A stretch of DNA of 64,000 nucleotides, from assembly GCF_003334765.1 (NCBI RefSeq), contig NZ_QOWT01000002.1; one strand, given 5' to 3'. This document shows positions 35,912 to 36,907 of the stretch, piece by piece. The notes beneath the pieces were generated by a model. That model had not been told where the DNA came from and searched no databases. It worked only from the letters and a program-made list of their open reading frames with translations. Source of the DNA: Escherichia coli. GTDB taxonomy: Bacteria > Pseudomonadota > Gammaproteobacteria > Enterobacterales > Enterobacteriaceae. The translations under genes and the position numbers were made by a program. Numbering within the stretch: position 1 is the stretch's first letter; each line of letters starts with the position of its first letter.

Positions 35912-36907
35912 ATGATACAACCTATTTCCGGCCCTCCTCCTGGGCAACCACCAGGTCAGGGAGATAATCTGCCGTCTGGCACGGGCAATCAGCCTTTATC
36001 CAGTCAGCAACGTACTTCGCTGGAAAGCTTAATGACGAAAGTGACCTCACTGACGCAACAGCAAAGAGCAGAACTGTGGGCGGGTATCAGGCACGATATT
36101 GGTCTGTCGGGAGATTCACCGCTGCTTTCGCGTCACTTCCCTGCCGCTGAGCATAATCTGGCGCAACGTCTGCTGGCCGCGCAAAAAAGCCATTCTGCCC
36201 GCCAGCTTTTAGCGCAATTAGGGGAGTATTTACGTCTGGGGAATAATCGTCAGGCGGTCACGGATTATATCCGTCATAACTTTGGTCAGACGCCGCTGAA
36301 TCAGCTCTCACCGGAGCAATTAAAAACCATTCTCACCCTGTTGCAGGAAGGGAAGATGGTTATTCCGCAACCACAGCAGCGCGAGGCGACCGACCGTCCT
36401 TTATTACCGGCGGAGCACAATGCGCTAAAACAGCTGGTGACCAAACTTGCGGCGGCAACGGGGGAACCCAGCAAACAGATCTGGCAATCGATGCTGGAAC
36501 TTTCCGGGGTGAAAGATGGCGAGTTAATTCCAGCGAAACTGTTTAACCATCTGGTGACCTGGCTACAGGCGCGTCAGACGCTAAGCCAGCAAAATACGCC
36601 GACGCTGGAATCACTACAGATGACGCTAAAACAACCTTTAGATGCCAGTGAACTGGCGGCGTTATCGGCATATATCCAGCAAAAATATGGTCTTTCTGCG
36701 CAATCATCGCTTTCTTCTGCCCAGGCCGAGGATATTCTTAATCAGCTTTATCAACGGCGGGTTAAAGGGATTGATCCGCGTGTTATGCAACCGCTGCTTA
36801 ATCCTTTTCCACCGATGATGGACACGTTGCAAAATATGGCAACGCGTCCCGCGCTGTGGATACTGTTAGTCGCGATTATCCTGATGCTGGTCTGGCTGGT
36901 TCGTTAA
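35912..36907 (+). CDS. flk: Flagellar regulator Flk (C-terminal membrane anchor)
   Basis: 331-aa ORF matching Flk; Pro/Gly-rich N-terminus and a C-terminal hydrophobic anchor ([18 protein letters not shown]). Confidence 0.93.

Follow-up and report, generated by a model that had tools for sequence, protein, structure and literature searches.

The interlocked stop codons of the convergent flk and yfcJ genes of Escherichia coli: probably an ordinary four-nucleotide overlap

Results

Gene ends at the junction

In the stretch of E. coli DNA analysed here (the window, 64,000 nucleotides), flk and yfcJ converge at a junction placed between pdxB/flk and yfcJ/fabB, and their coding sequences share four base pairs. 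The features that define the two gene ends are the following.

35912..36907, + strand: flk coding sequence, flagella biosynthesis regulator Flk (Fluke), 331 aa (ORF list, RefSeq, NCBIfam)
36851..36904, + strand: last 18 codons of flk, hydrophobic C-terminal membrane anchor (translation; boundary inferred from hydrophobicity)
36905-36907, + strand: flk stop codon TAA (direct sequence reading)
36904-36906, - strand: yfcJ stop codon TAA, read as the reverse complement (direct sequence reading)
36904..36907: common tetranucleotide TTAA of the YTAR class, with both stop codons inside, a 4-bp overlap of the coding sequences
36904..38082, - strand: yfcJ coding sequence, MFS transporter, 392 aa (ORF list, RefSeq, NCBIfam)

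The flk frame closes with ...CTG GTT CGT TAA on the + strand and the yfcJ frame with ...CGG GGT TAA on the - strand, bases 36905-36906 being common to both stop codons. The overlap of the stop codons, claimed in an earlier note made from the sequence, is borne out by this reading, by the ORF list, by the RefSeq annotation and by the NCBIfam ends. Identical ends are given by PGAP/RefSeq in strains H3, GW-AmxH19 and K-12 MG1655; in the latter flk occupies 2437950-2438945 and yfcJ 2438942-2440120, a window coordinate being the K-12 coordinate minus 2,402,038. The window is chromosomal and aligns collinearly with positions 3314015-3378014 of strain H3 (NZ_CP028732.1), from which it differs at 6 of 64,000 bases. 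In this near-identical strain the annotation gives yfcV (~53045-53608, - strand), the gene of a fimbrial subunit in the yfc chaperone-usher operon, as a pseudogene interrupted by an internal stop.

Flk matches the NCBIfam equivalog NF007987 with 505 bits (profile positions 1-338 of 339) and YfcJ matches NF009048 with 703 bits (positions 1-392 of 392). Since both profiles are matched to their ends, the two stops are genuine, and an annotation artefact was ruled out by these full-length matches together with the C-terminal lengths, which are conserved in 71 species. Of 5426 complete E. coli genomes, 5425 have the locus. Flk belongs to the tail-anchored proteins (PMC13344023), and the C-terminal ends of Flk and YfcJ are both hydrophobic membrane segments; in the window, loss of a stop would lengthen Flk by 25 aa or YfcJ by 50 aa. 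The geometry of the overlap also sustains the claim that each mRNA must end inside the coding sequence of its partner.

The flk/yfcJ junction is one of seven convergent junctions in the window, and the other six have spacers of 32-181 bp, all with strong hairpins/palindromes or REPs.

7423-7482, 16563-16596, 20563-20611, 41732-41853, 47119-47190 and 62032-62214: other convergent junctions of the window

REP-like palindromes were seen at the yfbR/yfbS and mnmC/yfcL junctions, and palindromes resembling bidirectional terminators at the yfcC/yfcD and yfdF/mlaA junctions.

Termination signals around the stops

Terminators were sought by a consensus scan and by a hairpin scan covering 250 nt past each stop, in which a stem had to reach -6 kcal/mol or stronger and to have 4 or more U in the 8 nt after it. 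Two structures came under consideration.

36830..36856, - strand: marginal intrinsic-terminator-like site of the yfcJ transcript, inside flk (consensus scan and hairpin scan)
36900..36917: weak 6-bp stem TTCGTT / GACGAA spanning both stops (folds and junction sequences)

On the + strand after flk, no terminator-like site was detected by the consensus scan and no hairpin of the required kind lies within 250 nt; as neither scan gave one, an intrinsic terminator after flk was rejected. On the yfcJ side a hairpin at 36856..36840 (CAGCGCG-GGA-CGCGUUG, then CCAUAUUUUG) stands 48-64 nt past the stop, with a dG of -8.0 kcal/mol and 4 U in 8 nt, the tail CCAUAUUU being poor, and in a longer fold a competing 11-bp hairpin takes its U-tract. 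Among the junction sequences of the 28 species that carry the overlap, this hairpin is seen only in E. coli sensu stricto and in one further locus, L003, and on this ground, and for want of a reported Term-seq end, it was rejected as a conserved terminator. The remark of the earlier note that no terminator is obvious nearby consequently stands for the flk side, where 250 nt are clean, and has to be corrected for the yfcJ side, where the marginal hairpin is found.

At the stops themselves, a bidirectional intrinsic terminator would call for a stable GC-rich hairpin between an A-tract and a U-tract; the only structure there is the 6-bp stem at 36900-36917, with a dG of -4.4 kcal/mol as + strand RNA and -2.8 kcal/mol as - strand RNA, and no U-tract. 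This stem is not conserved outside E. coli and, being weak as well, was rejected as a functional hairpin. A search of Rfam at E<=1 assigned the junction to none of its families; the only match was a sub-threshold one to naRNA4/REP at 38261-38337 (+ strand) in the fabB-yfcJ intergenic region (31.9 bits against a gathering threshold of 59.5; E 0.0035). naRNA4 is a REP-derived RNA, and the match may correspond to a REP-like element between fabB and yfcJ.

The C/G ratio of the 3' extension is 1.4-1.6 for flk (88th-92nd percentile of the window) and 1.1-1.3 for yfcJ (68th-80th percentile). Judged by base composition, this moderate C>G bias of both extensions is compatible with Rho loading without proving it.

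The junction in related species

Orthologous yfcJ loci were compared in 80 species, one per GTDB species, and both stops were located in each. flk is convergent with yfcJ and downstream of it in 71 of the 80 loci. The overlap is exactly -4 in 28 of these 71 species, namely Escherichia spp., Salmonella, most Citrobacter and Intestinirhabdus, and a second clade with Pluralibacter and relatives; in the YfcJ tree, the Escherichia-Salmonella-Citrobacter clade is filled by the -4 state. When the tetramer is read in the yfcJ sense in the window and the 28 species, TTAA occurs 15 times, TTAG 7, CTAA 5 and CTAG 2, with no transversion at the outer positions. The tetramer is polymorphic even within E. 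coli (TTAA/TTAG at window 36907): in strain 08_4358 (TTAG; locus L087, position 93) a single substitution turns the flk stop from TAA to TAG and is at the same time a synonymous GGT>GGC change in yfcJ, so that both stops are kept.

The junction is interrupted in the other 43 of the 71 species, close relatives of -4 species included, by spacers of 4-123 bp, mostly with palindromes (30 species), or by insertions of 1.5-2.4 kb (13 species).

~4680-4775: spacers in loci L017, L031, L034, L037, L039, L040, L042 and others
4680-6966 (L046), 4677-7002 (L056) and 4683-6265 (L061): the three inserts examined

REP-like spacers of 35-93 bp (GCCGGGTGGCG...CCTTACCCGGCCTAC) are present in Enterobacter, Lelliottia and Leclercia, a 31-bp GC hairpin (GCCACCC...GGGTGGC) with the look of a bidirectional terminator in Buttiauxella, and a palindrome-bearing spacer of 38-42 bp in Klebsiella. 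What the three examined inserts encode is either a GntR-family regulator together with a PTS IIC component of the cellobiose type or a 6-phospho-beta-glucosidase. Insertion at the yfcJ-flk junction is recurrent. Even two genomes labelled C. amalonaticus, which are representatives of separate GTDB species, differ here, one having the -4 overlap and the other an insert of 2.3 kb. The C-terminal lengths of Flk and YfcJ are constant across the -4, spacer and insert states, and therefore only the spacer differs. As a side observation, the yfcJ-flk locus of the record L038, titled 'Chryseobacterium sp. 18061', is enterobacterial and almost the same as that of 'Citrobacter sp. 18056' (L027), which points clearly to mislabelling or contamination of this public record.

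Over the last 10 codons, entropy at third codon positions amounts to 1.45 bits for yfcJ and 1.33 bits for flk, within the 1.15-1.52 bits found further upstream. As the values at the junction do not fall below those upstream, they give no sign of a hidden element at the nucleotide level, and a constraint of that kind was rejected.

Published transcript and 3'-end data

The flk-yfcJ pair is one of the 165 convergent excludons that ExcludonFinder (Sanmartin et al. 2025, PMC12288877) called in half or more of 58 MG1655 RNA-seq data sets, as are yfcH-rpnB and smrB-yfcO from the same window. Overlapping convergent transcription of flk and yfcJ is therefore a published observation, and the antisense read-through foreseen in the earlier note agrees with it. 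The excludon call is almost automatic in this case because the coding sequences overlap. In addition, overlapping 3' ends were reported in 276 of 370 E. coli convergent operons, averaging 286 nt (Conway et al. 2014, PMC4161252); being the rule in E. coli, such ends do not single out flk-yfcJ.

Within K-12 2438600-2439199, none of the three conditions of the curated Term-seq data (Adams et al. 2021) gave a 3' end, and flk has no entry there. Likewise, the TERMITe tables have no entry for flk or yfcJ. The 10 supplementary files of the p19/RNase III dsRNA study (PMC7373196) do not contain flk or yfcJ by name, although low expression could hide a signal there, and no bicyclomycin-sensitive region at the junction appears in Adams et al. 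(2021), where very low coverage could hide one. The only Rho region reported at the locus is that near the 5' end of yfcJ.

38003..38029, - strand: terminator-like motif (CCGCATCGCTTTTGCGG and TTTTTCTCAC) and Rho-termination region, 77 nt into the yfcJ ORF

This region, at K-12 2440043(-) (window 38005), has a Rho score of 5.8 and an upstream/downstream coverage of 236/15 without bicyclomycin (BCM) and 266/98 with it (Adams et al. 2021, supplementary file 2). The body of yfcJ is covered by only 15 reads per 800 nt in the same data, and the drop from 236 to 15 without BCM means that little transcription reaches the yfcJ 3' end in LB. The 800 nt over which upstream reads were counted extend into the 3' end of fabB, whose read-through may therefore contribute to the Rho region; the signal at 38003-38029 could come either from premature termination of yfcJ or from termination of fabB read-through.

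A PhoB site beside the stops

Close to the two stops, the sequence and published PhoB ChIP-seq data reveal a PhoB site.

36917..36934, - strand: Pho box TGTCACGATACTGTCATT, near-consensus (sequence and published PhoB ChIP-seq)

The box occupies the stretch 10-27 nt from the flk stop, lies within the last 10 codons of yfcJ and is built from the codons I-V-T-I-L-S-F. The ChIP-seq peak centre, at K-12 2438961 (window 36923), 16 nt from the flk stop, has a score of 8, the highest of the intragenic sites (PMC10294691, Table 1). According to the same study, yfcJ RNA is unchanged in a delta-phoB strain (163 vs 187), no roadblock effect was observed at three intragenic PhoB sites that were tested, and no unannotated PhoB-dependent transcripts were detected (PMC10294691). 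The full box exists only in part of E. coli, where it is polymorphic (TGTCAT/TGTCGT). As a Pho regulon promoter, the site has no -10 element after the box (TAACGA), no change of RNA in delta-phoB and no conservation. A role as a functional element was rejected, given the unchanged RNA and a box that is polymorphic and specific to E. coli. The site is probably fortuitous and inert, in agreement with the view of such sites held by the authors of that study (PMC10294691).

Discussion

Taken as a whole, the data make it likely that flk and yfcJ form an ordinary 4-nt YTAR convergent overlap, held in place by selection on two stops, with diffuse 3' ends and a passive antisense overlap of the transcripts. 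The pair has opposite-strand genes arranged tail to tail, the tetramer and genuine gene ends, which are the three features of the 4-nt YTAR class. The overlap is real but not unusual, and belongs to a recurrent and recognised class. [quoted passage not shown] According to Tables 2 and 3 of that work, fewer than 5 nt are shared in 672 of 1,890 convergent overlaps (36%). For E. coli, 58 convergent overlaps were counted there, with a predicted rho-independent terminator in 23 of the 116 genes, and a later survey lists 75 convergent overlapping pairs (Huvet and Stumpf 2014, PMC4161906). The feature at flk-yfcJ is thus already annotated, described as a class and catalogued as an excludon.

The Escherichia-Salmonella-Citrobacter lineage has no spacer at this junction, and the stops hence interlock in TTAA. 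We hypothesize that the overlap persists because a transversion at an outer base, or any indel, destroys a stop and extends Flk by 25 aa or YfcJ by 50 aa. Purifying selection on the two protein ends explains the conservation, and therefore selection for the overlap itself is not needed. Both genes appear to be weakly transcribed, and each mRNA would continue beyond its stop, antisense to the partner gene, and end there with no dedicated terminator. The most likely route to a 3' end would be the action of Rho on untranslated and moderately C-rich RNA, combined with 3' trimming, and in E. coli the weak species-specific hairpin at 36856-36840 may aid termination of the yfcJ transcript. We infer this role of Rho at the junction, as the C>G bias is moderate and no bicyclomycin-sensitive region was reported there; overlapping transcripts and the action of Rho at the 5' end of yfcJ, on the other hand, are taken from the literature. 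The complementarity of the 3' ends would then be incidental and passive, in common with most convergent junctions of E. coli, and would presumably have little or no regulatory effect.

Defined 3' ends could nevertheless be produced by cryptic intrinsic terminators within the partner coding sequence, with the site at 36856-36840 as the candidate for yfcJ. On the - strand this site matches the consensus, lies 48-64 nt beyond the yfcJ stop and has a dG of -8 kcal/mol, and for 20% of the genes that overlap convergently in E. coli a rho-independent terminator is predicted inside the partner gene (PMC2174442). Nothing comparable follows flk within 250 nt, however, and for yfcJ the poor tail, the competing 11-bp hairpin, the restriction to E. 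coli sensu stricto and L003, and the lack of an end in the published Term-seq interval or in the TERMITe tables make this explanation unlikely. An active role of the overlap, in which colliding RNA polymerases and/or RNase III cleavage within the 3'-3' duplex would make flk and yfcJ repress each other, is in line with the listing among the 165 convergent excludons (PMC12288877), with the lack of an efficient terminator on either side and with the -4 state conserved in 28 species, and it would link a flagellar secretion checkpoint to an MFS transporter. Yet that listing follows almost automatically from overlapping coding sequences, the pair is missing by name from the p19 dsRNA tables, and with yfcJ coverage that is very low and limited by Rho, collisions should be rare. 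Moreover, the junction is broken in 43 of 71 species and shows no extra synonymous constraint, and a literature search gave no functional link between Flk and YfcJ. A functional excludon is accordingly quite unlikely. The mutual interference suggested in the earlier note finds no support in the p19 tables, in reported junction 3' ends or Rho regions, or in the low coverage of yfcJ, and is further weakened by the synonymous sites and by relatives that tolerate spacers or whole inserted genes.

Collision has also been considered as a source of termination. Bidirectional termination by colliding convergent polymerases has been proposed (Wang et al. 2022; reportedly also Ju et al. 2019). At flk-yfcJ, head-on polymerases would pause at a hairpin in the overlap and be dislodged by trailing ones, and the convergent genes with no canonical terminator and the small stem at 36900-36917 across the stops would suit such a model. 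It applies best to pairs with high expression and requires a hairpin at which polymerases pause, whereas this stem, with a dG of -2.8 to -4.4 kcal/mol, is weak and shows no conservation, and expression is poor for at least yfcJ, which renders this mode of termination very unlikely here. Still less credible is the proposal that, in phosphate-starved cells, PhoB at 36917-36934 gives the junction a conditional roadblock or an antisense promoter: the strong ChIP-seq peak (score 8, 16 nt from the flk stop) and the near-consensus box invite the idea, but yfcJ RNA does not respond to delta-phoB, the three intragenic sites tested gave no roadblock (PMC10294691), the box is polymorphic and specific to E. 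coli, and the sequence after it (TAACGA) is no usable -10. We regard this as the most improbable of the readings.

A broader view would be that the interlocked stops are a selected device which predates the Escherichia-Salmonella-Citrobacter split and obliges the two transcripts to overlap, that expression of YfcJ thereby tunes the Flk checkpoint or the reverse, and that in E. coli PhoB adds a phosphate-dependent control of read-through; we consider it highly improbable. As a counterpoint to the reading as an ordinary overlap, the -4 arrangement is kept across one whole clade and in a second one, and selection for coupled transcription could account for this; furthermore, flk-yfcJ is a consistent excludon in the ExcludonFinder listing (PMC12288877). 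The ordinary YTAR overlap, with 3' ends that we infer to be Rho-dependent or diffuse and with presumably no function of its own, is the explanation that we favor.

The significance of the junction is small, since the visually striking common stops are a routine consequence of genome compaction. If interference were true, the pair would represent one more excludon among about 165, formed by two genes of low expression with no known functional connection. The comparative series nonetheless offers a small worked example, in which one junction displays four YTAR tetramers, spacers with REPs or terminators, and gene insertions.

Comparison with known systems

An excludon is defined by mutually exclusive expression, a concept reportedly introduced by Sesto et al. 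(2013). By the published list, flk-yfcJ resembles excludons in having complementary 3' ends. The likeness to Rho-dependent suppression of antisense transcription and 3' extensions lies in the ribosome-free RNA after each stop, which has C>G and is antisense to a region encoding a membrane segment. Rho already acts within yfcJ; the junction differs from established cases of Rho-dependent termination in that no bicyclomycin-sensitive region is reported there and the C/G bias is moderate. At the orthologous position, bidirectional terminators or REPs are found in Buttiauxella, Klebsiella and Enterobacter/Lelliottia/Leclercia, whereas flk-yfcJ of E. coli has neither spacer nor hairpin. With the class of 4-nt YTAR convergent overlaps the correspondence is complete: the stops are interlocked on opposite strands between genes that are otherwise independent, a geometry from which flk-yfcJ is no different, and most convergent overlaps of E. 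coli have no predicted intrinsic terminator. What this junction adds to the knowledge of the class is its phylogenetic spread, and the occurrence of all four tetramers within one orthologous junction.
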